Assembly (NCBI GenBank): GCA_030740435.1
Contig: JASLXG010000066.1
Span: 24,603-88,602 of the forward strand
DNA length: 64,000 nucleotides
DNA from: Alphaproteobacteria bacterium
GTDB lineage: Bacteria > Pseudomonadota > Alphaproteobacteria > UBA2966
Direction of reading: 5' to 3'
A program made the position numbers and the translations under genes. Below, in pieces: positions 1 through 19,024 of the stretch. A model generated the notes under the pieces. It was not told the DNA's origin and made no database searches. It saw only the letters and a program-made list of their open reading frames with translations. Numbering within the stretch: position 1 is the first letter of the stretch; each line of letters opens with the position of its first letter.

Positions 1-230
1 TGCACAACGGCAACTTCTTCGAACTCAGCGAAGTGGTCGAGTTCTACAACGAAGGCGGTGACCAGAACGAGTTCTCGGCCAACAAGACCAAGTTGCTCAA
101 GCCCCTCAACCTCTCGGACGAGGAGCAGGAGGACCTGGTGGCCTTCCTGGATTCCCTGAGCGGCGACGAAATCAAGATCACGTCGCCCAAGCTGCCGCCC
201 TATGCGCCGCTGCCGGCGTCGACGAATTGA
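1..230 (+). CDS. di-haem cytochrome c peroxidase / MauG-family protein, C-terminal end (5' part outside window)
   Basis: Frame open from the window edge (codons from nt 3) reads HNGNFFELSEVVEFYNEGGDQN...LSDEEQEDLVAFLDSLSG. This is the conserved C-terminal block of bacterial CCP/MauG proteins. Stop TGA at 228-230. Confidence 0.7.
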   Translation, partial: HNGNFFELSEVVEFYNEGGDQNEFSANKTKLLKPLNLSDEEQEDLVAFLDSLSGDEIKITSPKLPPYAPLPASTN

Positions 231-244
231 GCGGGGATGCAATC

Positions 245-835
245 ATGAAAATCGAAACGCAAACTGTGATTTCCGCCCACCAGGCCCACGACATGGTGGC
301 TTCTGGGGCGGTCCACGAAGGCCACGGCAAGTGCCTGATGAGCCGGCGCCAGTTCCTGCTGACCTCGGGTGCCACCAGCGTCGTGATGGTCAGTGCCGGT
401 CCCGGCCTGGCTGCCGCGCCGGCCGTGGTGTCGGGTTATAAGCGCCAGAAGATCGCCAAGCTGAGCCAGCTCAAGACCGACCAGCCGGTCGATTTCAAAT
501 ACCCTGACCAGGGAGCCTTCTCGGAATCGATGGTGGTCAAGTTGGGCACGGAAGCCGGCGGCGGCGTCGGTCCGGGCCGCGACGTGGTGGCCTTCAACTA
601 TGCCTGCACCCATCAGGGCGGGACTTTGAGCGGCACCTACAAGGGCGACACCAAGTCGCTGGGCGCCTGCCCGCTGCACCTTTCGACCTATGACCTGACG
701 CGCCACGGCATTTTGATCTCGGGCCAGGCCTACCAGAGCCTGCCCCAGGTGCTGCTGGAGTTGAAGGGCGACGATGTTTTTGCCGTGGGCGTCTTCGGGC
801 TGATCTTCGGCCGCTACGACAATCTGTTGGGTTAG
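245..835 (+). CDS. TAT-exported Rieske [2Fe-2S] small subunit, arsenite-oxidase/iodate-reductase (AioB/IdrB)-like
   Basis: Twin-arginine signal (MSRRQFLLTSGATSVV...AAAPA). Rieske boxes C-T-H (nt 605-613) and C-P-L-H 18 residues later. Sits directly upstream of the AioA-like large subunit, as in aioBA. Start ATG 245 (GGGGA 7 nt upstream) preferred; ATG 338 is an alternative. Confidence 0.8.
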   Translation: MKIETQTVISAHQAHDMVASGAVHEGHGKCLMSRRQFLLTSGATSVVMVSAGPGLAAAPAVVSGYKRQKIAKLSQLKTDQPVDFKYPDQGAFSESMVVKLGTEAGGGVGPGRDVVAFNYACTHQGGTLSGTYKGDTKSLGACPLHLSTYDLTRHGILISGQAYQSLPQVLLELKGDDVFAVGVFGLIFGRYDNLLG

Positions 836-3590: not shown

Positions 3591-3607
3591 GGATTAGAGT
3601 GCGATAA

Positions 3608-5803
3608 GTGATGAACCAGCATGACCCGCTTGCGCTCCAGCACAATGGAACGGCTGACGTCGTGGCCCTGAAGGCCAACGTCGTGGCCGCCCTGGCCGGC
3701 CTCCTGGGCCAAGGACCCGACGTGGTGCGCTGCGCCGCCGCCCGGGCCCTGGGGGTAATGGGATCCGAGGCTGCCGTCGAGCCACTGGTGGCGGCCTTGC
3801 TGGACGAGGACGAGGACGTGCGCACGGACGCCGCCGGGGCGCTGGCCCGTCTCGGCGCTGCGGCGGCCGACAAGCAGCTTCTGGAAAATTTGCTCGGCGA
3901 TCCCTGCGCCGACGTCAAGGCGGCCGCCATCCGGGCCCTGGCGGGCTCAAGGAATTCCGACGTCGTGCCTTGGCTGCGCCGCCTGGCGGCTGGCCGTGAC
4001 GAGGAGATCGCCTGGGACGAAGAGGCCTTTTTCGACCAGGACTGGGACGATTGGGTGGACTTGCAGGTGGCCGCCATCGAGGCCCTGGCCGAAATGGGCG
4101 GCACCGAGGCGGTGCCCGATATCGTCGCCGCCCTCGATGACGAATACGCCCAGGACATCACCGAGACCGCCTTCAAGGCCCTGGCGCGCCTGGGCGACGA
4201 GGGACTGACTGCGCTCTCGATCTATGCCGAGGGCGGCGACCAGCGCCTGCGCCGGCGCGCCGCGGCGGTCATGGCTACGGCCGGCGGCGAGGTGGCCGAG
4301 GCGGCGGTGGAGCGCGCGCTCGGCGATCCCGAGCCGGCCGTGCGCCTGGCCGTGGCCGAGGTGCTGGCCGCCAAGGCGGCCGCCGATCCCCGGCTCGAGG
4401 CTTTGCTCGGCGATGCCGATCCCGGGCTGCGCGCCATCGCGGCCGTGCGCTGGGGGGAGCACCACCCGGCCGGCCTGAGGCCGCTTTTCGAGGACCGCTC
4501 GGCCGCCGTGCGAACGGCTGCTTTCGCCGCCCTGGCGGCAGCCCCGGCCACTCCCGACGACGAAGGCCTGGCAGATCTCTTGCACCGTAACTTGGCGGCG
4601 ACGCCGGACCAGGTGCCGGCGGCCGCGGCCCAGGCCCTGGCGGCGCACTTCGGACAGGCGGCGCTCGATGACTTGGCGGCGCTGCTGGCGGACCGGTCCC
4701 GTGGACCGGAAGTGCGGCTGGGCGCGTTGCGTGGCCTTGGCCGTCTGGGCCTGGCGGCGGTGCCCGCGCTGAGCGGGCAATTGGCCGATGACGAACGCCA
4801 GATCCGCCTCGAAGCCATGACGGCGCTGGCCGGCGTCGCCAAGGCCGAGAGCTGGCCCAACGCCGCCGGCGAGAGCCTGCTGGCGGCCTTGCGCGGCGAG
4901 ATGGTGGCTGAGCCCGAGCCGGAACCAGAGGCCGAACCCGAGCCGGAACCAGAGCCCGAGCCCGAGCCCGACGAATCAGCCTTCCCGGAATCGACGCTGG
5001 CGGCCATCCTGGGCCCCGAATCGCCGCTGCTGGAAGCCCATGGCGAGGTCCGCGGTGGTGCCGAACTGGGTCCCGATGATTTGGAATTCCTCGGCTTGGC
5101 CCGCGAGGCCCGGCAGGCCGGCGGCAAGAAGCGGGTGCCGCTGGTGCCCGATGTGGCGACCCACCAGGACGTGCCGCGCTTTGCCGCCAACCTGCTCGGC
5201 GATATCGCCCGTGACGAAGTGGCGTTGGCGCTGACGCAAGCTCTGCCGGCCGCCGACCGCGAGTTGCGCATCGAGGCGGCGCGATCGTTGGGCCGCATCG
5301 GTGAGGTGCTGGGCGAGCTGCCCGAGGGGGCATTCGAGGCCCTGGCGGCGCTCAGCCAGGATCGTGAGCGCGATCTCAAGCTGGCCGCCGTGCGCAGCCT
5401 GGGCCTGGCTCCGCTGGCGCTGGCTGAGCCCTTGCTGCGGGCCGGACTCGAGGACGAGGACGGTTTCGTGCGCCGCGAGGCGGTCTCCGCCCTGGCCCGG
5501 CTGGGCCCCGTCGACGGTGCCGTCGACGCCCTTTTGCACGACAACGAGCCCGGCGTGCGCCTGGCCGTGGCGGAGGCGCTTTGCGCCTCGGGCCGCGAGG
5601 ACGCCCTGGCCCTGCTGATGGATTTCGCCTTTGCCTTCGGCGGCGCCCAGCGCCGCGAGGCCGGGCGGCTGCTGCGCCGCCTCGACGCCCCGGCCGCCAA
5701 TGCCCGGCTGTTGCAGGTGCTCGAAGACGAAAGCCGCGAGCCGGTCTGGCAGGTGGCCATCGAGATGCTGGAGGAAATCAATGCTTCCGTGGCGGGTGGA
5801 TAG
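3608..5803 (+). CDS. HEAT-repeat (PBS-lyase HEAT-like) protein, cytoplasmic
   Basis: 731 aa with many repeats of the pattern D(x)xVRxxAAxALGxxG...AvpxLxxxLxD. No signal peptide. GTG 3608 / ATG 3611 start. Confidence 0.75.
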   Translation: MMNQHDPLALQHNGTADVVALKANVVAALAGLLGQGPDVVRCAAARALGVMGSEAAVEPLVAALLDEDEDVRTDAAGALARLGAAAADKQLLENLLGDPCADVKAAAIRALAGSRNSDVVPWLRRLAAGRDEEIAWDEEAFFDQDWDDWVDLQVAAIEALAEMGGTEAVPDIVAALDDEYAQDITETAFKALARLGDEGLTALSIYAEGGDQRLRRRAAAVMATAGGEVAEAAVERALGDPEPAVRLAVAEVLAAKAAADPRLEALLGDADPGLRAIAAVRWGEHHPAGLRPLFEDRSAAVRTAAFAALAAAPATPDDEGLADLLHRNLAATPDQVPAAAAQALAAHFGQAALDDLAALLADRSRGPEVRLGALRGLGRLGLAAVPALSGQLADDERQIRLEAMTALAGVAKAESWPNAAGESLLAALRGEMVAEPEPEPEAEPEPEPEPEPEPDESAFPESTLAAILGPESPLLEAHGEVRGGAELGPDDLEFLGLAREARQAGGKKRVPLVPDVATHQDVPRFAANLLGDIARDEVALALTQALPAADRELRIEAARSLGRIGEVLGELPEGAFEALAALSQDRERDLKLAAVRSLGLAPLALAEPLLRAGLEDEDGFVRREAVSALARLGPVDGAVDALLHDNEPGVRLAVAEALCASGREDALALLMDFAFAFGGAQRREAGRLLRRLDAPAANARLLQVLEDESREPVWQVAIEMLEEINASVAGG
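4910..4972 (+). repeat. in-frame (Glu-Pro)n low-complexity tract inside the HEAT-repeat gene
   Basis: Encodes EPEPEPEAEPEPEPEPEPEPD. The 18-nt unit CCCGAGCCGGAACCAGAG occurs twice (4913-4930 and 4937-4954). Confidence 0.9.
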
Positions 5804-5835: not shown

Positions 5836-6618
5836 ATGACAATGAAAGCGCAGACGAAATTAGGCTCTTTGGCGATTGCCGTGGCGGTCGCGGTGGCCTT
5901 GGCGGCACCCGCCCAGGCGGCTAAGAAGTACAAGGAAATCGACGTCCAGAACGGCGCCACCATCAGCGGGCGTGTGAGCTTCGAAGGCGCGCTCCCGGCC
6001 GACGCGGTGGAGAAGATCCTGATCACCAAGGATCCCAAGATCTGCGGCGAGGGTGAACGCGAAGTGGTCTGGATCGACGTCAAGGACGGCGCGCTGCGCG
6101 GCAGCTTCGTCTTCATCAACAAAATAAAAGAGGGCAAGAAGTGGGGCGCCCCGACCGGCGGCAAGTACATCATCGACCAGAAGGGTTGCCGCTTCAATCC
6201 CTGGGCCCAGGTGGTGCAGCCCGGCCCCATCACCATCCGCCACTCGGACCCGGGGGCGCTGCATAACATCAACACGCGCGAGATCATCGGCGTGGGCAAG
6301 AAGAAGTCGGTCAAGCGCACCATGTTCAACTTCGGCCAGCCCGAGCCCGGCGATATCGAACAGGCGCTGAAGCCCAGGCGCTCAGCCTTCATCGGCATCA
6401 ACTGCGAGGCCCACAACTTCATGTTCGGCTACATGATGGCACCCAAACACCCCTATGCCGTGGTGGTCGCGGACGACGGCTCGTTCAGCCTTGGCGACGT
6501 GCCGCCAGGCAAGTATTCGGTGCGTGCCTGGCATCCCCGGCTCGGCCTCAAGAAGACCAAGATCACGGTGGCGGCCGGAGCCAAGGCGGAAGCCAATTTC
6601 GCTTTCAAGGCCAAGTAG
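5836..6618 (+). CDS. periplasmic cupredoxin-like protein (putative type-1 Cu site) with carboxypeptidase-regulatory-like beta-sandwich ends
   Basis: Sec signal (AVAVALAAPAQA). C190-E-A-H193-N-F-M196 (nt 6403-6423) is an amicyanin-style C-x2-H-x2-M loop, with upstream His candidates at 6241-6243 and 6262-6264. The N-terminal GATISGRVSFEG and C-terminal DGSFSLGDVPPGKYSVRAW resemble CarboxypepD_reg strands. RBS GAGGAGAGG precedes ATG 5836. Confidence 0.55.
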   Translation: MTMKAQTKLGSLAIAVAVAVALAAPAQAAKKYKEIDVQNGATISGRVSFEGALPADAVEKILITKDPKICGEGEREVVWIDVKDGALRGSFVFINKIKEGKKWGAPTGGKYIIDQKGCRFNPWAQVVQPGPITIRHSDPGALHNINTREIIGVGKKKSVKRTMFNFGQPEPGDIEQALKPRRSAFIGINCEAHNFMFGYMMAPKHPYAVVVADDGSFSLGDVPPGKYSVRAWHPRLGLKKTKITVAAGAKAEANFAFKAK

Positions 6619-6649: not shown

Positions 6650-8764
6650 GTGACGAAGGCGGGGCAGGGGCGAAGCAGGCAGGCGCTGCTGGCGCTGGCG
6701 GCGCTGACCCTGGCCGTTCTGGCTGCCTCGCCGGCCTGGGCCCTGGAGGCCAACGAATACCGCCAGGTCCTGGGCCTCGATTCGCGCAAAGTCGTTTGGT
6801 TCCTGGCCCAGATGCACCTTTTCTTCGGCGCCTTCGTGCTCGGCGTGCCGCTGTTCGCCGTGATCATCGAAATCGTCGGCTGGAAGAACGGCGACGAACG
6901 CTTCGACAAGCTGGCCTACGAATTCACCAGCCTGCTCAGCGTCGCCTATGCCACCACGGCGGCACTCGGCGGCATGCTGGCCTTCGCGCTGTTTACGCTT
7001 TACCCGACCTTCATGGGCTTCATGGCCGGAGCCTTCAAGGACGTCTTTTTCGTCTACGCCATCCTGTTTTTTGCCGAGACCTTCTGCCTCTATCTCTACT
7101 ACTACGGCTGGAAGGCGATGCAGGGGCGGGAGCCTTTCGGAAAAACCCTGCAACTGCTCTTCAAGACGGCCGGCGTGGTCATCGCAGGCCTTGGCCTGCT
7201 TTTCCTGTTCGGTCTTATCGGACCCGAGATGCGGGGCGATACCCGGGCCTTCATGGCGCTCTTGTACGTGCTGCCGCTGGGGGCCGGGATATATCTGCTG
7301 AAAGACGGCAAGTCGGGCCACATCCTGATCGGCATCCTGCTCAACCTGGCCGGCACCGGCATCATGCAGGCGGCCAACTCGATGGCCGGCTTCATGATGA
7401 GCCCGGCCGGCGTCAGCGAGGCCGGCGAGATCATCGGCAGCACCTGGCAGGTCTTCGAGAACGTGCTGGCCACGCCGGTGGCTATCCACCGCATGCTGGG
7501 CAATCTCGCCTTCGGCGGCCTGGTGGCGGGATCGTATGCCGCCGTCAAGTTCATCGGCGCCAAAACGGCCGAGGAAAAGGCGCACTACGACTGGATGGGC
7601 TACATCGCCAATTTCGTCGCCATCGCCGCCCTGATCCCGCTGCCCTTCGCCGGCTACTACCTGGGCCGCGAGGTCTATTCGACCTCGGCCGTCATGGGCA
7701 ACAACATGATGGGCGGCGATTTCTCCTGGACCTTCATCATCCAGGCCGTGCTGGTGGGCTCGCTGTTCTTGATCTCGAACTATTACCTCTGGTCCGGCAT
7801 GACCCGCATCCCGGGGTCCGAGCGCTATTACAAGTTCATCAAGTTCATCCTCTTTGCCCTGATCGTCTCCTTCGCCATCTGGCTGACGCCGCACAACCTG
7901 CCGCTGACGGGCTCGGAGGTGGGCGATATGGGCGGCAGCCAATACCACCCGACGCTCAAGTTCCTGGGCCTGATGCCGGCCAAGAACGCGGTGGTCAACC
8001 TGATCATCATCTCGACCTTCGTCAGCTTTCTTTTGTATCGCCGCGGCAACAAGGCCGATGCCGTGTCGATCCGGGCCCAGGGGCGGACGCCGATGATCGT
8101 CATCGGCCTGGCCGGCGCGGCGGCGCTCTTGATCGTTGGCCAATTCGCCTGGTCGCTGATGACCATGAGCCCGGCCGAGCTCGACCTGCCGGCCGACACG
8201 GCGCAGTACTTCCGCACCGTCGGTTGGCTCTTGATCGGCGAATGCGCCATGGTGGTGGTGGCCGTCGGCCTGGCGCTCACGGACCGCGGCAAGTGGGCCC
8301 AGGCGCTCTATCTCGCCTACACCGTCTTCAGCGTCGTGCTGTTCCTCGGCGTCTACGGCTTCGTGGTCATGGAGAAGGCCTCGCCCTTCCTGCGCGACGT
8401 TGCCGTGGCCCAGTTCCTGCAGCTCATCAGTGCCCTCATTCTGGTCTCCGCCATCGACCTATTCCTGTTCAAGGGCGCTCAGGAGATCGGCCCCCTGCAG
8501 TGGGGCAAGATGACCAACCGCAGCCAGTACGCGCTGCTGGCGCTGACCTTCGTCATCACCATGAACATGGGCCTGATGGGCTTCATCCGCTCAGGTTTGC
8601 GCGGCGACTGGCACATCTTCGGGGTCATGCGCGACACCTCGGAATGGTCCTACACGCCGACCAACGCCACCATGACCGAGATGGTCAGCCTGGCCGTGCT
8701 GGTCTTCATGGTGGGCGTCGCCTTCATGTTCTGGCTGGGCAGCATCGCTGCCAAGAAGGACTAG
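6650..8764 (+). CDS. CydA-like (cytochrome bd subunit I-like) polytopic membrane protein, module 1; no cydB partner
   Basis: 704 aa from GTG 6650 (RBS GGAGAGGA 6640-6647), with about 16-18 hydrophobic segments. Blocks alignable to E. coli CydA: AQMHLFFGAFVLGVPLF (His19 region), AILFFAETFCLYLYYYGW (FLESTFVGLFFFGW region), AIHRMLGNLAFGG (His186 region). Confidence 0.65.
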   Translation: MTKAGQGRSRQALLALAALTLAVLAASPAWALEANEYRQVLGLDSRKVVWFLAQMHLFFGAFVLGVPLFAVIIEIVGWKNGDERFDKLAYEFTSLLSVAYATTAALGGMLAFALFTLYPTFMGFMAGAFKDVFFVYAILFFAETFCLYLYYYGWKAMQGREPFGKTLQLLFKTAGVVIAGLGLLFLFGLIGPEMRGDTRAFMALLYVLPLGAGIYLLKDGKSGHILIGILLNLAGTGIMQAANSMAGFMMSPAGVSEAGEIIGSTWQVFENVLATPVAIHRMLGNLAFGGLVAGSYAAVKFIGAKTAEEKAHYDWMGYIANFVAIAALIPLPFAGYYLGREVYSTSAVMGNNMMGGDFSWTFIIQAVLVGSLFLISNYYLWSGMTRIPGSERYYKFIKFILFALIVSFAIWLTPHNLPLTGSEVGDMGGSQYHPTLKFLGLMPAKNAVVNLIIISTFVSFLLYRRGNKADAVSIRAQGRTPMIVIGLAGAAALLIVGQFAWSLMTMSPAELDLPADTAQYFRTVGWLLIGECAMVVVAVGLALTDRGKWAQALYLAYTVFSVVLFLGVYGFVVMEKASPFLRDVAVAQFLQLISALILVSAIDLFLFKGAQEIGPLQWGKMTNRSQYALLALTFVITMNMGLMGFIRSGLRGDWHIFGVMRDTSEWSYTPTNATMTEMVSLAVLVFMVGVAFMFWLGSIAAKKD

Positions 8765-8768
8765 CCGC

Positions 8769-9746
8769 ATGACCGCCACCATGGCCAGGGTTGCGCTGTT
8801 CATGTTTCTGCTGCTGGGCCTTTTCCTGTGGGTCGGCAGCACCATCACGGCCATGACCGGCGGCGACAAGCGGCCCAAGGGCGGCGCCGTCGAGGTCAGC
8901 CCCGAGGGCGGCGAGGCCATCTTCTGGGGCAAGGGGCGCTGCTTCACCTGCCACAGCCTGGGCGGCCAAGGGAGCGCCGTGCGCTGCCCCAACCTGGGCC
9001 AATTCGGCGACAAGTTCGCGCTGCCCATCGGCGCCCGAGCGGCGGAGCGGGCCAAGGAACGCAGCGCCAAGACCGGCCAGACCTACACGACCACCGATTA
9101 CCTGGTGGAAAGCCTGGCCGAGCCTGGGGCCTACGTCGTCGAGGGCTACAAGAACGAGATGGCCATCGTCTACGCGCCGCCGATCTCGCTCAATCTTACC
9201 GAGATCAAGGCCGTGATCGCCTACTTGCAGAGCCAGGGCGGCGACGTCGACATGGAGGCGCTGAACAAGCCAAGCCCGATCAGCCAGAAGTTCTTCGCCC
9301 GCATCAATGCGGCCTCGGCCGCCGGTGGTGGCGATCCCGGTGCCGGCGAGGTGGTCTTCGAGGACAACTGCGCCGAATGCCATGACCTCGGTGGTGAAGA
9401 CGAGGAGCTGCCGGGTCCGGCGCTTTCGGGCGTCGGCAAGAAGGGCCTCAAGTTCCTGGCCGATGCCATCCTCAGGCCGGCCAAGGAGATCACCAAGGGT
9501 TTCGAGACGTATCAAGCGGTGATGAAGGACGGCCGCAAGCACGTTGGCCTGAAAAGCCGTGACGAGGGCGGCGAGGTCGACATCACCAAGGCCAACGGCG
9601 ACGTCGAGACGCTGGCCAAGGCCGAGATCAAGGAGCTCAAGGAAGACAAGGGCAAATCGATCATGCCCGAAGACCTGATCGAGGCCCTGACGGTCAAGGA
9701 CTATCAGGACGTCCTCTCGTTCCTGCTGTTGCAAAAGGGCGAGTAA
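8769..9746 (+). CDS. membrane-anchored di-haem cytochrome c, module 1
   Basis: N-terminal TM helix. CFTCH and CAECH motifs. The C-terminal half resembles the Planctomycete/Verrucomicrobia-type haem-binding domain (...SIMPEDLIEALTVKDYQDVLSFL). Confidence 0.8.
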   Translation: MTATMARVALFMFLLLGLFLWVGSTITAMTGGDKRPKGGAVEVSPEGGEAIFWGKGRCFTCHSLGGQGSAVRCPNLGQFGDKFALPIGARAAERAKERSAKTGQTYTTTDYLVESLAEPGAYVVEGYKNEMAIVYAPPISLNLTEIKAVIAYLQSQGGDVDMEALNKPSPISQKFFARINAASAAGGGDPGAGEVVFEDNCAECHDLGGEDEELPGPALSGVGKKGLKFLADAILRPAKEITKGFETYQAVMKDGRKHVGLKSRDEGGEVDITKANGDVETLAKAEIKELKEDKGKSIMPEDLIEALTVKDYQDVLSFLLLQKGE

Positions 9747-9752: not shown

Positions 9753-10718
9753 ATGGCAAAGCTCAGAATCAGTCGCTTCTGGTGGGTCGTGATCACCATT
9801 GTGGCGGTCTATGCCTTCGTCAAATGGGGCATTCCGGCGCTCTCGCGGGAAATCACGGCGCTGCCCTTCCCGCTTTCGGTGCCGGGCACCTTGATGTTCA
9901 TCTACATCGTGCTGACGCTGGTGGCGCTGTTTCTCTTCATCACCTTTTCGGACGACTACCTGGAAGAATTCAGCCGCCCCATCAAGCGTCTGCTGCGCGG
10001 CGAATTCGGCGCCATCCCGCGCCTCGTGGTGCTGCTGGCGGTGCCGTTGATCGTCGGCTGGCAGGTTTACGACGTGACCGTGCCCAAGGTCGAGCTGCCC
10101 TCGACGCTGCGCATCCAGCACCCCTCGTCGAACTTCCCCAAGAAGTTCGAGAGCATGAACAATCCCTTCGCCAATCCCGATGAAGCCACGGTCGCGGCCT
10201 TCATCGAGCAGGCCAAGGACGAGGAGATCGAGTTCATCGCCCAAGTCCAGGGCGACATCGAGGCCTGGCGCGAAGAGATCGATCCAGACAACCCCTACGA
10301 TTTCATCCCCACCAAGCCCTGGCGTGCCTTTCTCGCCCAGCTCGAAGAGGGCGAGGTCGAGCCGGCCGTGGCCAAGGCGGCGCTGGTGGAGAAGAACCTC
10401 TTCGAGGGGCGCGCCCTATATGCCATGAACTGCCGGCCCTGCCACGGCGACAGCGTCGCCGGCGACGGCCCGCTGGCCGACGGCTTCAAGCTCAGGCCGA
10501 TCAACTTCACCGACAACGGCACCATCGAGACCATCGTCGAGGGCTACACCTTCTGGCGCGTGAGCAACGGCGGCCCCGGCCTGCCCACCGAGGCCACACC
10601 CTGGGATTCGGCCATGCCCGAGTGGAAGGTCAGCCTGACCGAGGCCGAGCGCTGGAAGATCATCCTGGCCGAATACGACCTGGCCCAGAAGACGCCGCGC
10701 ATCCCGGAGAGCCATTGA
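9753..10718 (+). CDS. 3-TM membrane-anchored mono-haem cytochrome c, module 1
   Basis: Three N-terminal hydrophobic helices. One CRPCH motif followed by FWRVSNGGPGLPTEATPWDSAMP. Its stop overlaps the next start (TGATG, 10716-10720). Confidence 0.8.
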   Translation: MAKLRISRFWWVVITIVAVYAFVKWGIPALSREITALPFPLSVPGTLMFIYIVLTLVALFLFITFSDDYLEEFSRPIKRLLRGEFGAIPRLVVLLAVPLIVGWQVYDVTVPKVELPSTLRIQHPSSNFPKKFESMNNPFANPDEATVAAFIEQAKDEEIEFIAQVQGDIEAWREEIDPDNPYDFIPTKPWRAFLAQLEEGEVEPAVAKAALVEKNLFEGRALYAMNCRPCHGDSVAGDGPLADGFKLRPINFTDNGTIETIVEGYTFWRVSNGGPGLPTEATPWDSAMPEWKVSLTEAERWKIILAEYDLAQKTPRIPESH

Positions 10719-12337
10719 TGGTTTCGCGCATCACCATGGCGCTGGGCTTGGGCCTTCTCGCTTTCGCGGTCTCGCCGGCCGAGGCCGCCGACGTCTCGCA
10801 GGATCCCCAGCCCGAGTTCACGGACGAGCTGCGGGCTGAAGGCCGGCAGATCTACTTCCAGCGCTGCAGCTTCTGCCACGGCCTGCTGGGCGACGGCGAG
10901 GGACCGGCGGCGCCCTTCATGGACCCCCGGCCGCGCGACTTCACGCTGGGCACCTTCAAGTTCCGCACCACCCAGTCGGGCGAGCTGCCGCAAGATTCAG
11001 ACATCTTCCGCACCGTCAGCCGCGGCCTCAGCGGCACCGCCATGCAGGCCTTCGACGACGAGCGCATCAAGAACGGCCTCAGCGAGCACCAGCGCTGGGC
11101 CGTGATCGCCTACATCCAGACCTTCGCCCAGGAGTTCGACGATGAGGAACTGGACCCGGTCAAGACCGGCAAGGTGGTGGCGCTGCCCAAGGACCGCCCG
11201 GCCTATGGCGCCGAAATCGTGGCCAAAGGCAAAGAAATCTTTCTCAAGGCCAAGTGCTGGGAATGCCACGGCAAGTCGGGCCGCGGCGACGGCCAAAAAT
11301 CCTTCGACCGCAAGGACGACTGGGGCTTTCCCATCCGCATCCGCAACGTCACCCATCCCTGGAAGATCAAGGCCGGCGACCGCGTCGAGGACATCTACAT
11401 GCGTTTCTCGACCGGCATCAGCGGCACGCCCATGCCGTCTTTCGTCAAGGCCCTGAGCGAGAGCGAACGCTGGCAGCTGGCCAACTTCATCAAGTCTTTG
11501 CAGATCCAGCGCACCAGCCACCAGGTGCTGAAGGCGCTGCGCCTGGAGGGCGAGCTGCCCGAGAGCCCGGATGATCCGCGCTGGAAGCAAGCCGAGCCCA
11601 TGGACGTGATTCTTACCGGGCAGGCCGTGGCGCCGCCGCGCTGGCAAAGCCCGTCGGTCGAGATGGTGACGCTGAGGGCCGTCTTCAATGACAACGAAAT
11701 CGCTTTCCGGCTGACTTGGGACGACCCCTTCAAGGACACCAAGCACGACGCCGGGCAGGAACTCGACGTCAAGGAGATCAGCGCCAGCGGCATCTACAGT
11801 TCATACGTCGACGTCAACGAGTTGGCGGTGCGCAAGCTGGAGACCTATCGCGACGCCGTGGCGCTGCAGTTTCCCGTGAAGCCCACCGAGGGCACCAGGC
11901 GGCCGCACTTCCTGCGCGGCTCGGCCTCGGATCCGGTGCATCTCTGGCTTTGGAAAGCCGATGAGGGCGCTGTCGAGGAAGCCGTCGGCCGGGGTTGGCG
12001 CCAAGGCCTGAGGCCGCAGCCCGAGGAGCAGCAGCAGGTCGCCGCCAAGGCCGCCTGGGACCAGGGGCGCTGGCAACTGGTGATGAAACGGCCCTTGCGC
12101 ACCGAGGACAAGAACGACGTCCAGTTCGAGGCCGGCCGCTTCATTCCGCTGTCGCTCAATGCCTGGGACGGCTCCAACGGCGAACACGGTTTGATCATGA
12201 GCCTCTCTAGTTGGTATTACGTCTTCCTCGAAGCGCCGACGCCGATCAGCGTTTACCTCTATACCATCCTGGCGATCTTGATCACGGGCGGTCTGGGTTT
12301 CTGGTTGATGAGAAAAGCTGAAGCGGAAGACGCCTAG
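10718..12337 (+). CDS. di-haem cytochrome c fused to EB_dh-like (ethylbenzene-dehydrogenase gamma/NxrC-like haem-b) domain with C-terminal TM anchor, module 1
   Basis: Signal peptide. CSFCH and CWECH in CcoP-like repeats (PRDFTLG, GTAMQAF / GTPMPSF). Then about 250 aa of beta-rich domain (VTLRAVFNDNEIAFRLTWDD...FIPLSLNAWDGSNGEHG). C-terminal helix VYLYTILAILITGGLGFWL. Confidence 0.65.
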   Translation: MVSRITMALGLGLLAFAVSPAEAADVSQDPQPEFTDELRAEGRQIYFQRCSFCHGLLGDGEGPAAPFMDPRPRDFTLGTFKFRTTQSGELPQDSDIFRTVSRGLSGTAMQAFDDERIKNGLSEHQRWAVIAYIQTFAQEFDDEELDPVKTGKVVALPKDRPAYGAEIVAKGKEIFLKAKCWECHGKSGRGDGQKSFDRKDDWGFPIRIRNVTHPWKIKAGDRVEDIYMRFSTGISGTPMPSFVKALSESERWQLANFIKSLQIQRTSHQVLKALRLEGELPESPDDPRWKQAEPMDVILTGQAVAPPRWQSPSVEMVTLRAVFNDNEIAFRLTWDDPFKDTKHDAGQELDVKEISASGIYSSYVDVNELAVRKLETYRDAVALQFPVKPTEGTRRPHFLRGSASDPVHLWLWKADEGAVEEAVGRGWRQGLRPQPEEQQQVAAKAAWDQGRWQLVMKRPLRTEDKNDVQFEAGRFIPLSLNAWDGSNGEHGLIMSLSSWYYVFLEAPTPISVYLYTILAILITGGLGFWLMRKAEAEDA

Positions 12338-12391: not shown

Positions 12392-13054
12392 ATGAGAATA
12401 ATTTTTGCCTCATCTTTGGCGCTGGCGCTGAGCCTGGCCGCAAGTGGTCCGGCCCGGGCTGATGCGGCGGCCGGCAAGGCCGCCTTCGCGGCCCAGAAAT
12501 GCGAGGGCTGCCATTACACCGAAGGGCCGGCCAGGGAGAAGTCGATCGACGATCAGTTGGCCAAGAAGGGGCCTGAGCTGTGGTACGCCGGTTCCAAGTT
12601 CCAGGCGCCCTGGCTCGAGGCCTGGCTGCAAAAACCCGATGCCATCCGGCCGCTGAAGTACAACACGCTCGAACAAGAGAACCCCGGCGACCATCCCAAG
12701 CTTTCGGGCGGCGATGCCAAGAACGTCGCCGCTTTCCTCATGAGCCTGACCTCGGACGCTGTCAAGGCGGGCAAGGTCAAGGCCAAGAGGAACGCCAAGG
12801 GGCGCCTGATTTTCTCCAAGAAAATGCCCTGTTCCGGTTGCCACTCCTCCATCGGCCGCAAGAAGAAAGTCGGCGGCGGGCGTTCCGGCCCGACCCTGGT
12901 CGGGGCCGGCCAGCGCCTCAACCCGGACTGGATCCTGGCCTATCTCAAGACGCCCGACGTCTTCAAGCCGATCAAGGCCATGCCCGTGTTCGCCGGTATC
13001 CTGGGCGACAAGGACATGCTCAACCTGGCCCGCCACGTGGCCAGCTTCAAGTAG
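12392..13054 (+). CDS. periplasmic di-haem cytochrome c
   Basis: Signal peptide (ALALSLAASGPARA). CEGCH and CSGCH motifs. RBS GGGAGAG. Confidence 0.8.
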   Translation: MRIIFASSLALALSLAASGPARADAAAGKAAFAAQKCEGCHYTEGPAREKSIDDQLAKKGPELWYAGSKFQAPWLEAWLQKPDAIRPLKYNTLEQENPGDHPKLSGGDAKNVAAFLMSLTSDAVKAGKVKAKRNAKGRLIFSKKMPCSGCHSSIGRKKKVGGGRSGPTLVGAGQRLNPDWILAYLKTPDVFKPIKAMPVFAGILGDKDMLNLARHVASFK

Positions 13055-13074: not shown

Positions 13075-13443
13075 ATGAAAAGATTGACCACCGCCGCTGC
13101 CTTCTGCACCCTGGCGTTTGCCCTGGCCGTTCCTTCGGCCCAGGCCGCCGATGCCAAGAAGGTCTACAACTTCTATTGCGCCCAGTGCCACGGCACCGCC
13201 GGCAAAGGCAAGGGACCCAACGTCACCAAGGACTTTCCCGTCAGCCCGCGCGACTTCACCAATGCCGCCGAGATGGACAAGCTCTCGGACGCCGACATGA
13301 AGAACGTGATTCTGGATGGCGGTCCGGCGGCCTCCAAGTCGCCCATGATGCCGCCCTGGTCCAAGACCCTGAAGGGCGACGAGGTTGACGCTCTGGTCGG
13401 CTACCTGCGCAAGTTCTGCGGCTGCAAGGGCAAGCAAGGCTAG
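13075..13443 (+). CDS. periplasmic mono-haem cytochrome c (class I)
   Basis: Signal peptide (FALAVPSAQA). CAQCH, with distal Met candidates in SPMMPPW. RBS GGGAGGA 13061-13067. Confidence 0.8.
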   Translation: MKRLTTAAAFCTLAFALAVPSAQAADAKKVYNFYCAQCHGTAGKGKGPNVTKDFPVSPRDFTNAAEMDKLSDADMKNVILDGGPAASKSPMMPPWSKTLKGDEVDALVGYLRKFCGCKGKQG

Positions 13444-13846: not shown

Positions 13847-13897
13847 AGTCAAGGCAGCCTGCAGGGGGGCACAAATGAATAATCCGAGGGATTGCTC

Positions 13898-14014: not shown

Positions 14015-14023
14015 GGGGGACTG

Positions 14024-15880
14024 GTGACGCACAGCAAGGTTTTGACCGCCTGGCGCCCCTGGGTGCTGGCGGCTCTGGTGGCGACGCTGTTGCTGGCCCT
14101 GGTGCCGCTGCTGGGCAGCGCCCTGGATATCGCGTCGCCGGCCCTGGCGGCCGAAGGCGAGGCGGCGGCGGCGGCAAGCGGCGAGCAGGCGGCGGCCCCG
14201 GCCGGCCCGACCATCGCGCCGCCCAAACTGAAGAGCACCGACTATCCGGTTGTGGCCGGCGTCAACGGACGCATCTTCGTCTGGCTGGCGGCGCAATTGC
14301 ACCTCTGGTTCGCGGCCTTCGTGCTGGCCGTGCCGATCTTCGTCTTCATCATCGAAGCCATCGGCATGTACAGCCGCGACCAACGCTACGACAACATGGC
14401 CTACGAGTTCATCAAGGTCAGCATCACCGCCTATTCCCTGACCGCCATCCTGGGTGGCCTGTTGGCCATCGGCCTGATCGTTTTCTACCCGCACCTCTTC
14501 CAGTACATGTCCGGCGTCTTCAAGGAATCGATGGTCTGGTATGCGGTGCTGTTCTTCGCCGAAAGCGCCTGCCTTTACATCTATTACTACGGCTGGCACT
14601 GGCTGCAGGGCGGCTTCCGCAAGTGGGTTCATCTGACGCTGGGGCTGGTGCTGAATGGCGTCGGCACGACGCTGATGTTCCTGGCCAACGCCTGGCTCAC
14701 CTTCCAGATGAGCCCGGCCGGCGTCGATGCCGCCGGCCTCTATTCCGGCGACGTCTGGGCCGCCATCCACAATCCCTTGTGGAACCCCATCAACCTGCAC
14801 CGCATGATCGCCAACGTCGCCTACGGCGGCTCGGTGGTCGGCGCCTATGCCGCCTTCCGGTTTCTCTCGTCGCGCACGGCCGAGCTCAGGGCGCATTACG
14901 ACTGGATGGGCTACACCGCCAACTTCATCGCCATCAGCGCGCTCTTGCCGCTGCCCTTCGCCGGCTACTACCTGACGGCCGAGATCTACGCCTACAGCCA
15001 GCAGATGGGCATCACCCTGATGGGCGGCGTCTTCGCCTGGCTCTTCATCATCCAGGCGGTGCTGATCGGCACGCTGTTCCTCTCGGCCAACTATTATCTC
15101 TGGTGCGGCATGGGGCGCAGCGACGGGGCGCCGCGTTACAACCCCTATATCAAGTACATAGCCTTCGGTCTGGTGGCCTCGTTCCTGGTCTGGTTCACGC
15201 CCCACACCCTGGTGCTGACGAACGAGGAACTGAAGGCTCTGGGCGGGCCCTACCACAAGTACCTGGGGCCGCTGGGCATCATGCCGGCCAAGAACACGGC
15301 CGTGAACTACATGATCATCCTGACGGCGCTGAGTTTCCTGATTTACCGCCGCGCCAACAAGATCCCGACGGTAAGCTGGGTCAAGATCGGCAATGCCGTG
15401 CAGGTGGCCATGTTCACGGCCGCCGTCGTCAACATCCTTATCCTGGGCGTCTACCACGGCTACTTCACCAACACCGTCTACAAGGTGGCGAGCTCGATCC
15501 CCCAGGTGTTGACGACGCTGGTGGTGATCTTCGTCAGTACGCTCATCGACGTCTTCATGTACCGCGGCGCCAAGGACGTGGCGCCGCTGCATTGGGGCCG
15601 ATTGCCCGAACGCGCCCAGTACGCGCTCTTCCTGCTGGCCGTCTCGTTCACCTGGCTGATGGGCCTGATGGGCTACATCCGCTCGGGCATCCGCCAGCAC
15701 TGGCACGTGGTCGGCATCTTCCGCGACAACTCGGCCGACGCCTTCACGCCGACCCTGGCGGGCGGTGCCAATATCGTCTCTGTGGGGGTCATCATCTTCC
15801 TGGTGATGGTCATCTTCGTCTTCTGGGTCAGCCAGATCAGCGGCCGCAAGACCGAAGTGGCCGGATACTGGAGGACCTAG
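14024..15880 (+). CDS. CydA-like (cytochrome bd subunit I-like) polytopic membrane protein, module 2; no cydB partner
   Basis: 618 aa, about 14 hydrophobic segments. AAQLHLWFAAFVLAVPIF, AVLFFAESACLYIYYYGW, NLHRMIANVAYGG and MGLMGYIRSGIRQHWH are all shared with the module-1 paralogue. GTG start with GGGGGA 14015-14020. Confidence 0.65.
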   Translation: MTHSKVLTAWRPWVLAALVATLLLALVPLLGSALDIASPALAAEGEAAAAASGEQAAAPAGPTIAPPKLKSTDYPVVAGVNGRIFVWLAAQLHLWFAAFVLAVPIFVFIIEAIGMYSRDQRYDNMAYEFIKVSITAYSLTAILGGLLAIGLIVFYPHLFQYMSGVFKESMVWYAVLFFAESACLYIYYYGWHWLQGGFRKWVHLTLGLVLNGVGTTLMFLANAWLTFQMSPAGVDAAGLYSGDVWAAIHNPLWNPINLHRMIANVAYGGSVVGAYAAFRFLSSRTAELRAHYDWMGYTANFIAISALLPLPFAGYYLTAEIYAYSQQMGITLMGGVFAWLFIIQAVLIGTLFLSANYYLWCGMGRSDGAPRYNPYIKYIAFGLVASFLVWFTPHTLVLTNEELKALGGPYHKYLGPLGIMPAKNTAVNYMIILTALSFLIYRRANKIPTVSWVKIGNAVQVAMFTAAVVNILILGVYHGYFTNTVYKVASSIPQVLTTLVVIFVSTLIDVFMYRGAKDVAPLHWGRLPERAQYALFLLAVSFTWLMGLMGYIRSGIRQHWHVVGIFRDNSADAFTPTLAGGANIVSVGVIIFLVMVIFVFWVSQISGRKTEVAGYWRT

Positions 15881-15883
15881 GCG

Positions 15884-16702
15884 ATGATGAACTTCCTCAA
15901 GGTGGCCCTCTTCTCGCTGGTCGTCATCGGCTTTTTCGCGGGCTATTCCAACTGGGGCATCCCGCAGATCGAGCCGGCGGCGCCGCCGGTGGAAGAAGTG
16001 CTCGATCTGGGCGCCATGACCATGGACGACTTCATCGCGCTGGGCGGCAAGATCTACAACGGCAAGGGCACCTGCACGCTCTGCCACAATGCCGTCGGCG
16101 GCCGGGCGCCCATGCTCGATACCGCCGCCGGCCTGGTTGCCGAACGCCTCAAGGACGCCCGCTACAAGGGCGAGGCCAGCGACGCCGAGGGCTATCTGCT
16201 GGAATCGCTGGTCAATCCCTCGGCCTTCGTGGTGGCGGGCTTCGGCAAGAAGGGGACAGCCGATGCCGAAAGCCCGATGCCCGACGTCTCGGGCGGCTCG
16301 GTGGGCTTGAGCGAGGTCGAACTGGCGGCCGTGGTGGCCTTCCTGCAGGATCTCGGCGGCACCGATGTGACGGTGGAGATCCCCTCGGGCGCCCAGGCCT
16401 CCGACGAAAGCGGCGACGAGGAGGGCGAGCCCCGGGCGGCCTACGCCTCGATCGAGGAACTGATCGCCGAGCAGTCCTGCGGCGCCTGCCACAAGGTGGC
16501 CGGCGAGGAAGGCGACGTTGGTCCGGACCTCAACGGCATCGGCGCCAAGTACGATCGCGACTACCTGCGCCGTTCCATCCTCGATCCCAATGCCGACATC
16601 GGCCAGGGCTTCGAGGCCGACACCATGCCGGCGGAATACGGCACCACCCTCTATGCCCAGGAACTCGAAATGCTGATCGACTACCTGGCCAAACTGAAAT
16701 GA
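15884..16702 (+). CDS. membrane-anchored di-haem cytochrome c, module 2
   Basis: N-terminal TM helix. CTLCH and CGACH motifs. YLLESLVNPSAFVVAGF and DYLRRSILDPNADIGQGF blocks are paralogous to the 8769-9746 protein. Confidence 0.8.
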   Translation: MMNFLKVALFSLVVIGFFAGYSNWGIPQIEPAAPPVEEVLDLGAMTMDDFIALGGKIYNGKGTCTLCHNAVGGRAPMLDTAAGLVAERLKDARYKGEASDAEGYLLESLVNPSAFVVAGFGKKGTADAESPMPDVSGGSVGLSEVELAAVVAFLQDLGGTDVTVEIPSGAQASDESGDEEGEPRAAYASIEELIAEQSCGACHKVAGEEGDVGPDLNGIGAKYDRDYLRRSILDPNADIGQGFEADTMPAEYGTTLYAQELEMLIDYLAKLK

Positions 16703-16715
16703 GCAGGGGCGCGGC

Positions 16716-17483
16716 ATGAAAATTCCCAGGCTCCTGCTGTCGGTCATCACCGTCCTGGTCTTCTACGCCGCCTTCGAGGTGGTCTTCGGGCTGATCCTCG
16801 GGCAGCCCATCCCGGCCAGCCTGATGACCATGTACATGTTCTTCGTGGTTGCCGGCGTCTTCATGACGTTTACCTTCACCGAGGAAGGCGGCCGCGAGAT
16901 GGTGGCGCCGATCAAGGCGCTGGTCGAGGATCCCTCCAAACGCATGGTGCGCAACGTCGTCTTCGTCATCGTGCCGCTGCTGGCCGGTGGCCTGACGTAT
17001 TGGCAGATGCAGCCCTCCTTCGAGGCGCCGCTGGAGCTGCGTTCGATCCATCCGGCACCGCCCTCGAGCGCCAAGATCTACGGCAAGCGCTACGATCTGC
17101 TGACGCTGGAGAACCCGTTGCGCAAGTTCGAGAAGGAGGATCCCGAGAAGTTCCGCGAATTGGTGGCGGCGGGCGCCACGGTCTACATCGAGAACTGCCA
17201 GTACTGCCACGGCGACAAGCTCGATGGCCAGGGGCCCTACGCCCAGGGCCTCAATCCGGTGCCGCTCAACTTCCAGGACATCGGCACCATCGCCCAGCTT
17301 CAGGAATCCTACCTCTTTTGGCGCATTGCCACGGGCGGGCCGGGCCTGCCCAGCGAAGCCTCGCCCTGGCTCTCGTCGATGCCGGTGTGGCAGAGCTTCC
17401 TCAAGGAAGAAGAAATCTGGCAGGTCATCCTTTTCCTTTACGACTACACCGGCCACCGGCCGCGCTCATGGGAGCATGAATGA
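16716..17483 (+). CDS. 3-TM membrane-anchored mono-haem cytochrome c, module 2
   Basis: Three hydrophobic helices. CQYCH followed by FWRIATGGPGLPSEASPWLSSMP. Paralogue of 9753-10718. Overlaps the next gene by 4 nt. Confidence 0.8.
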   Translation: MKIPRLLLSVITVLVFYAAFEVVFGLILGQPIPASLMTMYMFFVVAGVFMTFTFTEEGGREMVAPIKALVEDPSKRMVRNVVFVIVPLLAGGLTYWQMQPSFEAPLELRSIHPAPPSSAKIYGKRYDLLTLENPLRKFEKEDPEKFRELVAAGATVYIENCQYCHGDKLDGQGPYAQGLNPVPLNFQDIGTIAQLQESYLFWRIATGGPGLPSEASPWLSSMPVWQSFLKEEEIWQVILFLYDYTGHRPRSWEHE

Positions 17484-19024
17484 TGGCTGCGGTGACGATG
17501 GATAAAGTGCTGCGGGCGCTGGGCGCCGGTATCGTGCTGGCCGCTCTTTCGGCGGGTGCCGCCCTGGCCGTGCCGGGCAATGCCGAGAAGGGCGAAAAGG
17601 TCTACCAGTTCCGCTGCCTGGCCTGCCACGGCGACGAAGGCGACGGCCTGGGCCCGGCTGCCGAGCGCCTCAACCCGCCGCCTCGGGACTTTACGCTGGG
17701 GATTTATAAGATCAAGACCAGCGCCTTTGACGAAGACGCGCCCAACGACGACGACATCTTCCGCATGATCAAGGACGGCATGCCCGGAACCGCCATGCCG
17801 GGCTGGTCGGACGTGCTCAGCGAGCAGGACATGTGGGACCTGGTGGCCTATCTCAAGGTCTTCGCCGAGATCGAGGAGGCGCCGGAGGGCCAGATCGACT
17901 ACGGCAAGCAGATCGAAAGCTCGGCCGACAGCATCGCCCGTGGGCGTGAAATTTTCCTCGATGGCGAGCGCTGCTCCGAATGCCACGGCCGTGAAGGCCG
18001 CGGTGACGGCATCAAGAAGCTCAAGGACGACAACGGCGCCCGCACCTGGCCCAGGAACCTCACCAAGGCCTGGACCTATCGCGCCGACAACAGCGCCAAG
18101 GAGATCTTCCGCCGCGTCACGGTGGGTATTCCCGGCACCCAGATGCCGGCCTTCGCCGATCCCAAGTCGAAAAAGAAACTGAGCATCGAGGAACGCTGGC
18201 ACGTGGCCAACTATGTGGCCTCGCTGGCCAAGACGGTGGAGGTCGTCAATCCCTCCAAGACGGTGATCGTGGCGGCCAAGCTCGAGGGCGCGCTGCCGGC
18301 CAAGGTCGACGACCCGAAATGGGCCGAGGCGGCGCCCGTGACCTTCATGCTGGTGCCCCAGATCATCGCCGAGGACAGGTTCTTCACGCCGGCCCACGAC
18401 AGCATCACCGCCCGCGCCTTCTATAACGACGAAGCGATCGCCATGCTGCTGGAATGGGACGACCGCACCAAGTCCTTGCCCGGGGACGACAAGGCGGCCC
18501 AGATCGCGGACGAGGAGCTGAGCTCCGACATGGTGGCCGTGCAACTGCCGGTGACGATTCCCATAAGCCAGGAGAAGCCCTATTTCCTGATGGGCGACAA
18601 ATCCCATCCCGTGAACTTCTGGCGCTGGTCCAGCGGCGGCAAGGAGGCGTCCCAGGGCGTCGAGTTGATGAACGCCACCGGGCCCTACGAGTTCGCCGAA
18701 CGCGACGCCGCCAAGACTGGTCTCACGGCCAGCGGCAGCTACAAGGACGGCACCTGGCGGGTAGTCATGACCCGGCCCTTGCGCACCGATGATGCCGAGG
18801 GCGACCTGCAGTTCGAGGAGGGCCGCTTCATCCCCGTGGCCTTCGCCAACTGGGACGGCTCCAACAGCGAAAGCGAAACCAGCCACACCCTGACGACCTG
18901 GTACTGGCTGCTGCTCGAGCCGCCGACGGGGACGCGGCCCCTGATCACGGCCCTGATCGTAGTGCTGCTGCTGGCGGCGGCCGAGATCTGGTGGGCGCGT
19001 AGCGCCCGTGGGTCCGATGCATGA
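17480..19024 (+). CDS. di-haem cytochrome c fused to EB_dh-like domain with C-terminal TM anchor, module 2
   Basis: CLACH and CSECH motifs. PRDFTLG and GTAMPGW/GTQMPAF blocks. Then ITARAFYNDEAIAMLLEWDD...FIPVAFANWDGSNSESE. C-terminal helix LITALIVVLLLAAAEIWW. Paralogue of 10718-12337. Confidence 0.65.
   Translation: MMAAVTMDKVLRALGAGIVLAALSAGAALAVPGNAEKGEKVYQFRCLACHGDEGDGLGPAAERLNPPPRDFTLGIYKIKTSAFDEDAPNDDDIFRMIKDGMPGTAMPGWSDVLSEQDMWDLVAYLKVFAEIEEAPEGQIDYGKQIESSADSIARGREIFLDGERCSECHGREGRGDGIKKLKDDNGARTWPRNLTKAWTYRADNSAKEIFRRVTVGIPGTQMPAFADPKSKKKLSIEERWHVANYVASLAKTVEVVNPSKTVIVAAKLEGALPAKVDDPKWAEAAPVTFMLVPQIIAEDRFFTPAHDSITARAFYNDEAIAMLLEWDDRTKSLPGDDKAAQIADEELSSDMVAVQLPVTIPISQEKPYFLMGDKSHPVNFWRWSSGGKEASQGVELMNATGPYEFAERDAAKTGLTASGSYKDGTWRVVMTRPLRTDDAEGDLQFEEGRFIPVAFANWDGSNSESETSHTLTTWYWLLLEPPTGTRPLITALIVVLLLAAAEIWWARSARGSDA

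Follow-up and report, generated by a model that had tools for sequence, protein, structure and literature searches.

Introduction

In nitrite oxidisers and anammox bacteria, a central place in energy metabolism is ascribed to the bd-like (OR-N) oxidases and to the alternative NxrC proteins (alt_NxrC) encoded with them. Lucker 2013 (PMC3578206) described alt_NxrC as a protein with two haem c sites and a haem b domain like that of the dimethyl sulfoxide (DMSO) reductases, and listed a bd-like oxidase, an alternative NxrC, cupredoxins and cytochromes c with one or two haems as common to Nitrospina, Nitrospira and Kuenenia. Mundinger 2019 (PMC6606698) reported one transmembrane helix and two haem motifs for alt_NxrC_2, in a cluster that is highly transcribed and duplicated nearby in all Nitrospira. 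According to the Murali 2021 supplement, OR-N2 cydA operons typically hold several cytochromes c together with an ebdC homologue, and a cytochrome c is the likely electron donor of OR-N2. These systems have so far been read almost wholly through their link to nitrite oxidoreductase (NXR); in the open-access literature searched, no biochemical or structural study of an OR-N/alt_NxrC complex was found. Herein, two genes of this kind, termed P1 and P2, are described from a stretch of 64,000 nucleotides of an uncultured alphaproteobacterium (GCA_030740435.1, contig JASLXG010000066.1, positions 24,603 to 88,602). This whole stretch is referred to as the window, and its own numbering is used throughout.

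P1 and P2 each join a dihaem cytochrome c, an EB_dh domain and a membrane anchor. They are further examples of the alt_NxrC-type subunits already described in bd-like modules, and their architecture is not new; the CydA-like proteins in the window are provisionally placed in the OR-N2 subfamily. The fusion itself is ordinary, while a conserved island of Aio-like and bd-like genes and a set of haem b ligand swaps are the points of interest: the family is known, its context and its ligands are variant. In functional terms, P1 and P2 are read here as the membrane-tethered haem c/b entry wire of two paralogous bd-like oxidase modules, a reading to which a probability of roughly 0.6 is given.

Architecture of the Two Fusion Proteins

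P1 is encoded at 10718..12337 (539 residues) and P2 at 17480..19024 (514 residues), both on the forward strand, as are all genes and sites below unless stated otherwise. The GC content at third codon positions (GC3) backs both reading frames. Both are identified by Pfam and NCBIfam matches, by hits to PDB sequences or BLASTP, and by AlphaFold2 (AF2) models searched with Foldseek. From end to end the two proteins share 36% identity (BLASTP E 3e-103), and they follow the same domain order, in agreement with a preliminary description of this locus, made from the sequence alone, that had taken them as paralogues of one layout. In P1, a signal peptide (residues 1-24) is followed by the dihaem cytochrome c (~30-262), the EB_dh domain (~265-505) and a transmembrane segment (~510-531); in P2, a signal (residues 1-31) precedes the dihaem cytochrome c, the EB_dh domain and a transmembrane segment at residues 486-513. 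Hydropathy analysis gives each protein a signal-like N-terminus and a single C-terminal transmembrane segment.

Exactly two CXXCH motifs occur in each fusion, namely CSFCH (50-54) and CWECH (180-184) in P1 and CLACH (46-50) and CSECH (165-169) in P2. The first haem c site of P1 (10865..10879) would have Met109 as its distal ligand, and C50, C53, H54 and M109 are invariant in an alignment of 82 sequences. For the second site (11255..11269), whose columns are likewise invariant, the predicted distal ligand is Met239. The cytochrome c families PF00034 and PF13442 match both P1 and P2. The earlier wording of these domains as CcoP-like stands in so far as the PF13442 domain is common to both, but not at the level of the ccoP equivalog TIGR00782, where the fusions reach 38 and 56 bits and the cut-off is 180. 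No ccoN or ccoO gene is present near the fusions.

The assignment of the following domain to EB_dh, for which a PF09459 hidden Markov model (HMM) search had been suggested, is borne out in both proteins (P1: E 1e-23, 85 bits; P2: E 1.7e-22, 81 bits; gathering cut-off 33.3). The blocks by which the domain had been recognised, AFRLTWDD and NAWDGSNGE in P1 and AMLLEWDD and ANWDGSNSE in P2, are present, and their core motifs WDD and WDGSN.E are invariant among the aligned fusions. The best NCBIfam match of both is TIGR03477, the haem b subunit of type II DMSO reductases, the family of EbdC, NxrC, SerC, ClrC and DdhC. The family level is not reached (P1 111 and P2 102 bits versus a cut-off of 169.85), nor is the level of the EbdC equivalog (41 and 50 bits versus 400).

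At the start of P1, a TGATG overlap with the stop of the preceding cytochrome c gene is found, with GGAG 9 nt upstream; at the start of P2, an ATGA overlap with its own preceding cytochrome c gene is accompanied by an upstream GGGAG, both motifs being Shine-Dalgarno-like. Each fusion is translationally coupled to the preceding gene.

Predicted Structure

AF2 models were built on alignments of 82 (P1) and 81 (P2) sequences and are of high confidence. They reached a mean predicted local distance difference test (pLDDT) score of 86.5 and a predicted template modelling (pTM) score of 0.84 for P1, and 88.0 and 0.81 for P2. The C-terminal membrane segments are modelled as helices (510-538 in P1, 486-513 in P2) and, taken with hydropathy and motif positions, confirm that each fusion has a signal peptide, two CXXCH motifs and a C-terminal anchor, as had been proposed.

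In a Foldseek comparison with the PDB, each model divides into two known folds. The N-terminal half resembles the dihaem cytochrome Kustc0457 of Kuenenia (6h5l_B; TM-score 0.86 for P1 and 0.88 for P2), which phmmer also retrieves with E values of 1.5e-53 (P1) and 6.6e-40 (P2) at 38% identity. The C-terminal half resembles EbdC (2ivf_C; TM-score 0.83, rmsd 2.8-3.1, E 7.5e-14 for P1 and 5e-17 for P2) and NxrC (7b04_C; Foldseek E about 1e-14). All three chains (6h5l_B, 7b04_C and 2ivf_C) are found by PDB sequence search as well. An EB_dh/DOMON-like fold is thus present in the central domain, where the preliminary description had expected it. The next Foldseek neighbours of the P1 and P2 EB_dh domains are haem-free CBM9 modules, and the fold matches of P2 also include the haem b domains of cellobiose (4qi3_A) and pyranose dehydrogenases.

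An insertion of ~21-28 residues in the EB_dh domain (window 11750-11833, P1 residues ~345-372) is confined to P1-type proteins and missing from the P2-type; it is modelled at low confidence, with pLDDT values of 64-67.

Haem b Ligand Positions

The haem b of EbdC is ligated by Met108 and Lys201, and that of Kuenenia NxrC by Met155 and Lys305 (PMC8387239). The corresponding positions of P1 and P2 were read from HMMER alignments to 2ivf_C and 7b04_C, and the canonical Met/Lys pair is kept in neither protein. P1 has Arg400 or a gap at the site of EbdC Met108 and NxrC Met155, and Met494 (12197..12199) at the site of Lys201 and Lys305. P2 has Met371 (18590..18592) at the EbdC Met108 site and His469 (18884..18886) at the EbdC Lys201 site. 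The comparison with EbdC and NxrC, proposed earlier as a way of finding the ligands, therefore gives a divided answer: the canonical pair is missing, while plausible though non-canonical axial ligands exist in both P1 and P2.

Among 41 P1-type sequences, Arg400 and Met494 are present in all and His397 in 39. The full pattern His397/Arg400/His490/Met494 is matched by 109 of 120 proteins, with 7 of the remainder being misses of the regular expression. The P2-type carries Met at the first site in 40/41 sequences and His at the second in 37/41; in a larger set, these residues are found in ~98/119 and ~100/119 proteins, respectively, with Tyr at the position of His397. About 75% of the P2-type proteins retain Met and His together, and the minority pairs are His/His, Phe/His, Ala/Tyr and Met/Ser.

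The fusions fall into one tree with three clades, and the Nitrospinota sister clade of P1 shows His397/Asn400/Lys494. Across the clades, His397 is present exactly where the canonical Met, at position 400, is absent. Because of this covariation and of its place in the alignment, His397, which opens the segment His397-Phe-Leu-Arg400 (11906..11917), is taken as the replacement axial ligand. Haem b would then be ligated by His397 and Met494 in P1 and by Met371 and His469 in P2. Replacement of ligands clade by clade in this manner (His/Met in the P1-type, Met/His in the P2-type, His/Lys in Nitrospinota) goes beyond the literature searched. His490 was also considered as the partner of Met494 and rejected, on the reasoning that two residues four positions apart on one strand cannot reach opposite faces of the haem.

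The bd-like Modules

P1 and P2 are the last genes of two paralogous four-gene modules, which share the order CydA-like subunit, dihaem cytochrome c, monohaem cytochrome c and fusion. Module 1 opens with a CydA-like membrane subunit of the OR-N-type bd-like kind (6650..8764; PF01654 E 2.6e-10) with multiple transmembrane segments; its start is uncertain, as the open reading frame (ORF) begins at 6455. A membrane-anchored dihaem cytochrome c (8769..9746; two CXXCH, an N-terminal transmembrane segment, Pfam and TIGR02603 matches) and a membrane monohaem cytochrome c (9753..10718), whose stop is the one that overlaps the P1 start, complete the module. In module 2, the CydA-like subunit (14024..15880; PF01654 E 2.3e-14) can be aligned to solved structures of cytochrome bd subunit I over their first helices; the His of the first transmembrane helix, the His186 equivalent and a channel Glu are conserved. 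It is followed by a membrane-anchored dihaem cytochrome c (15884..16702) and a membrane monohaem cytochrome c (16716..17483), which runs into the start of P2. Two further cytochromes c lie between the modules: a secreted dihaem protein (12392..13054) that follows P1 in most loci, and a small monohaem protein (13075..13443).

That the fusion belongs to the CydA-like module, as was claimed in the preliminary description, is supported by the translational coupling and by the gene order, which is kept in proteobacterial, SAR324, Nitrospinota and Nitrospirota loci. The further claim that the domain was recruited here is not supported. A fusion within the module is the standard, previously described arrangement (Lucker 2013, Mundinger 2019, Murali 2021 supplement), and since alt_NxrC is already part of the bd-like modules of the literature, the supposed recruitment is the ancestral state of the module and not a local novelty. 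The duplication of the module, too, occurs in a marine Nitrospinota genome (locus L084).

Two long ORFs in this region, at 13939-16719 on the forward and 13763-16750 on the reverse strand, were discarded as off-frame ghosts of GC-rich sequence: they have no family match, GC3 speaks against them, and the real genes beneath them are those at 14024-15880 and 15884-16702. Two ORFs of 40 residues with a single transmembrane segment are found upstream of the second CydA-like gene (13724-13846 and 13892-14014), with counterparts in other loci (L002 12911-13160; L001 13617-13733) and the conserved sequences WAGPALF...FFxWF and ...MNxQGLxLxYQP. By analogy with CydX, the bd-like complex may include them as small subunits. 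Directly downstream of P2, a small conserved protein with two transmembrane segments (…LIFLGxLxSxLSWRGG…) is encoded (~19090-19200; L001 18689-18946; L002 18112-18321).

The Aio-like Enzyme and Other Neighbours

Upstream of module 1, the window encodes an AioB-like Rieske subunit with a twin-arginine signal for Tat export (227..835) and an AioA-like molybdopterin subunit (849..3521; TIGR02693 401 bits versus a cut-off of 359), followed by a HEAT-repeat protein of 731 residues (3608..5803) that accompanies the high-identity group of AioA-like proteins described below. The AioA-like protein is distant from proven AioA, with ~270 bits to the NT-26 enzyme over 770 residues. It retains the CxxCxxxC motif of the 3Fe-4S cluster and the equivalents of His195, Arg419 and His423, and has Ser at the equivalent of Glu203. 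Its 90%-identity cluster has 504 members. Published work has reassigned 'aioA-like' genes of low-oxygen marine sites to the iodate reductase IdrA. The cytochrome c peroxidases idrP1/idrP2, which define Idr loci, are absent from the cluster according to family scans of the window and the surveyed relatives, and no list in the supplements of the iodate reductase paper assigns the AioA-like protein of the window to the IdrA clade or to the 'unknown' clade.

Between the HEAT-repeat gene and module 1 lies a gene for a secreted cupredoxin-like protein with a C-terminal CarboxypepD_reg domain (5836..6618). A Pfam scan of this protein returned CarboxypepD_reg only and no cupredoxin domain; a motif H...C-x2-H-x2-M, shared with Nitrospinota homologues (L084 5031-5711; L070 8069-8833), may form a type-1-copper-like site. 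The protein accompanies the modules from Proteobacteria to Nitrospinota. Downstream of the modules, a Usp protein (window 19187-20944) and a radical-SAM/SPASM protein (window 20958-22250) are conserved, and each carries a PCP_red domain (PF08369). This domain is the C-terminal domain of a protochlorophyllide reductase subunit. One database protein of 945 residues (P0482) joins EB_dh, cytochrome c, Usp and PCP_red, either as a fusion or as a read-through gene call. Among the large ORFs of the 64-kb window, Pfam and NCBIfam detect no subunit of a type II DMSO reductase, in line with what had been noted before.

Distribution and Synteny

Proteins with the same three Pfam domains are widespread: more than 1800 database clusters match P1 in this way and more than 1100 match P2, under source names such as 'ethylbenzene dehydrogenase-related protein', 'c-type cytochrome' and 'DMSO reductase family type II enzyme heme b subunit'. 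Relatives were found in at least 511 species-representative genomes. With EB_dh alone as the query and E values up to 1e-10, 500 cluster representatives (50% identity) were retrieved; the best of them are mostly 500-600 residues long with EB_dh in the C-terminal half, and so are fused proteins. Two CXXCH motifs are kept in 119/120 P1-type and 120/120 P2-type homologues, and the C-terminal transmembrane segment in 118/120 and 120/120.

Synteny was studied in the 80 closest species loci among the at least 511 relatives. A cluster of ~22 kb (window 227-22250) is syntenic in the loci L001-L063 and L078-L081, in the order Rieske, AioA-like, (HEAT), CydA1, c, c, P1, dihaem c, CydA2, c, c, P2, Usp/PCP_red and radical SAM; the cupredoxin-like gene is part of this cluster as well. 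The hosts are Alpha-, Beta- and Gammaproteobacteria, SAR324 and others, as metagenome-assembled genomes (MAGs), several of which are labelled Arabian Sea, ETNP or Saanich Inlet, all low-oxygen marine sites. The second module is present in 35 of the 44 loci with enough downstream sequence. Linkage to the Aio-like genes was counted only where CydA1 is preceded by 5 kb of sequence or more: the AioA-like gene stands directly upstream in 38/41. These 38 comprise 21 loci in a group of ~85% identity, all with the HEAT gene (21/21), and 17 in a group of ~55% identity, none of which has it (0/17). Both the tight linkage of the double module with the Aio-like genes in Proteobacteria and SAR324 and the extent of the conserved ~22-kb cluster go beyond the literature searched, and searches for a described cluster of Aio plus bd-like genes gave nothing relevant.

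Outside these groups, the marine Nitrospinota genome L084 holds both modules together with the cupredoxin-like gene, and a Pfam scan of two Nitrospinota loci, L070 and L084, shows no molybdoenzyme next to the module. In one alphaproteobacterial MAG (L017, ~2200-4600), a third fusion of cytochrome c and EB_dh, which has diverged further and shares 41% identity with P2, is encoded upstream of the double module in the place of the Aio-like genes.

Proposed Function and Alternatives

As the entry wire of its module, each fusion would be exported by the Sec pathway and stay anchored at the periplasmic side of the membrane through its C-terminal helix. It would carry two His/Met-ligated c-haems, and its EB_dh β-sandwich would most likely contain a single b-haem. 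The CydA-like partner seems to combine bd-type haem-binding helices with no evident quinol loop. Electrons from a periplasmic donor would thus pass through the c- and b-haems of the fusion, together with the two membrane cytochromes c, to the haems of the CydA-like subunit, where O2, or possibly another oxidant, would be reduced at low oxygen. The most plausible donor is the adjacent Tat-exported Aio-like enzyme, which might deliver electrons via its Rieske subunit and then through either the cupredoxin-like protein or the soluble cytochromes c of the cluster. The Aio-like enzyme or the cupredoxin might also dock on the fusion, as the preliminary description put forward as a possibility; gene linkage (38/41 loci) is the one sign of a functional connection.

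A number of observations weigh against this reading. O2 reduction and haem b binding are putative for OR-N complexes and alt_NxrC in general. The role of His397 as a ligand is deduced from covariation and alignment position, and the loop in which it lies in P1 (~391-400) has a mean pLDDT of only 66. In the P2-type, the ligand positions vary among orthologues, so some members may lack haem b; the P2-like fusion of the marine Nitrospinota (L084 3497-5017) has Asn and Arg there and may not bind it, in which case haem b would perhaps not be universal in this clade. The AioA-like protein is distant from proven AioA and has Ser in place of Glu203; it may be an arsenite oxidase, a relative of iodate reductase or something else, and the direction of electron flow would depend on its substrate. 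Moreover, Nitrospinota and Nitrospirota MAGs hold the four-gene module without Aio-like genes, and the Aio linkage, having been counted in the closest loci, may fail across the family.

If electrons flowed the other way, the modules would be cytochrome c:quinone sites resembling alternative complex III (ACIII) and the fusions would hand electrons out, with high-potential electrons being driven uphill to the quinone pool or quinol electrons being delivered to a periplasmic Aio/Idr reductase of the iodate type. Reverse electron transport through the bd-like/alt_NxrC cluster has indeed been proposed for nitrite oxidisers and anammox bacteria (PMC3578206, PMC6606698), and the reassignment of marine aioA-like genes to IdrA would fit a reductase, as would the missing Glu203 equivalent. 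Such a site is nonetheless unlikely here, given that the bd-like oxidases lack all quinol-binding residues of canonical bd (Lucker 2013, PMC3578206), that Murali 2021 describes OR-N without a quinol site, that the idrP1/idrP2 genes are absent and that the bd haem ligands required for O2 chemistry are retained. Equally unlikely is the idea that the EB_dh domain, at least in the P2-type, has no haem b and serves as a structural or docking β-sandwich like non-haem CBM9/DOMON domains, leaving conduction to the c-haems. The absence of the canonical Met/Lys from both paralogues, the variable P2-type positions (Asn/Arg in the Nitrospinota protein) and the proximity of haem-free CBM9 modules in fold space speak for it; the near invariance of His397, Arg400, His490 and Met494 in the P1-type (109/120), the invariant WDD and WDGSN.E motifs, and the Met and His kept by ~75% of P2-type proteins, the very pair used by cellobiose dehydrogenase, itself a fold match of P2, speak for a bound haem.

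It is very improbable that P1 and P2 are true gamma subunits that anchor a type II DMSO reductase of the NXR or ethylbenzene dehydrogenase kind encoded elsewhere in the genome. Their homology to EbdC and NxrC is real, and this was the original interpretation of alt_NxrC in nitrite oxidisers (PMC3578206, PMC6606698). No such enzyme is found, however, in the 64-kb window or in the two Nitrospinota loci scanned with Pfam; the surveyed flanks in proteobacterial and SAR324 relatives are taken up by Aio-like genes on the upstream side and by the Usp/radical-SAM pair on the downstream side; TIGR03477 is matched below its cut-off and the Met/Lys pair is not retained; and the transcript levels of Nitrospira alt_nxrC speak against membership in the core NXR (PMC6606698).

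Returning to the entry-wire reading, the occurrence of the double module beside Aio-like genes in 38/41 loci, and elsewhere without a molybdoenzyme, argues that it is a self-contained, donor-independent sink for high-potential electrons. A more far-reaching and rather doubtful extension would make the alt_NxrC fusion a general adaptor that joins varied periplasmic molybdoenzymes straight to bd-like oxidases, docking here the Rieske subunit of an Aio/Idr-family enzyme and not a four-cluster NxrB, with ligand swaps that tune the potential of haem b to the donor. If this were true, the widespread ~22-kb island of marine proteobacterial and SAR324 MAGs would encode a new electron transport chain, lithotrophic or linked to an oxyanion, that works at nanomolar oxygen. 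The cluster also draws attention to an uncharacterised enzyme of the Aio/Idr family, abundant in marine metagenomes, whose substrate matters for arsenic and iodine cycling in low-oxygen waters, and the clade-specific replacement of Met/Lys supplies concrete residues for mutation.

Comparison with Known Systems

The stand-alone haem b subunits EbdC, NxrC and SerC (TIGR03477; 2IVF chain C, 7B04 chain C) share the fold of the EB_dh domain and its WDD and W-x-G-x-N/R-x-E blocks. They are soluble proteins of ~200-320 residues with Met/Lys-ligated haem b that sit on a four-cluster beta subunit (PMC8387239), whereas in P1 and P2 the domain is joined to a dihaem cytochrome c and a transmembrane segment, the family cut-off is not reached and the neighbourhood encodes no alpha-beta partner. 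In a similar way, Kustc0457 (6H5L chain B), the partner of the HAO-like Kustc0458, is homologous to the N-terminal 230 residues of P1 and P2; it is free-standing and soluble and docks on a multihaem enzyme, while its counterpart in the fusions is attached to EB_dh and tethered to the membrane.

The cytochrome domain of cellobiose dehydrogenase belongs to the same superfold. It binds haem b through Met and His, the pair that is proposed here for P2. It is a distant, eukaryotic and flavoenzyme-linked domain, and its structural similarity to P2 is weak.

The OR-N2 operons of Murali, Gennis and Hemp 2021 have the same CydA-like subunit without a quinol site, several cytochromes c and an ebdC homologue; no Aio-like partner is named and haem b ligands are not discussed in that work. 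The alt_NxrC proteins of Nitrospina gracilis, Nitrospira and Kuenenia, set beside P1 and P2 by their published description, have the same order of two haem c sites, EB_dh and transmembrane segment. Their clusters hold the same four-gene module, duplicated nearby and with cupredoxin-like genes alongside, and homologues from Nitrospinota and Nitrospirota share 45-57% identity with P1 over the full length. Unlike the alt_NxrC of nitrite oxidisers, P1 and P2 belong to an uncultured alphaproteobacterium and have an Aio-like Rieske/molybdoenzyme, not NXR, as their neighbour, and the P1-type carries Arg400 and Met494 where the Nitrospinota sister clade has Asn and Lys.

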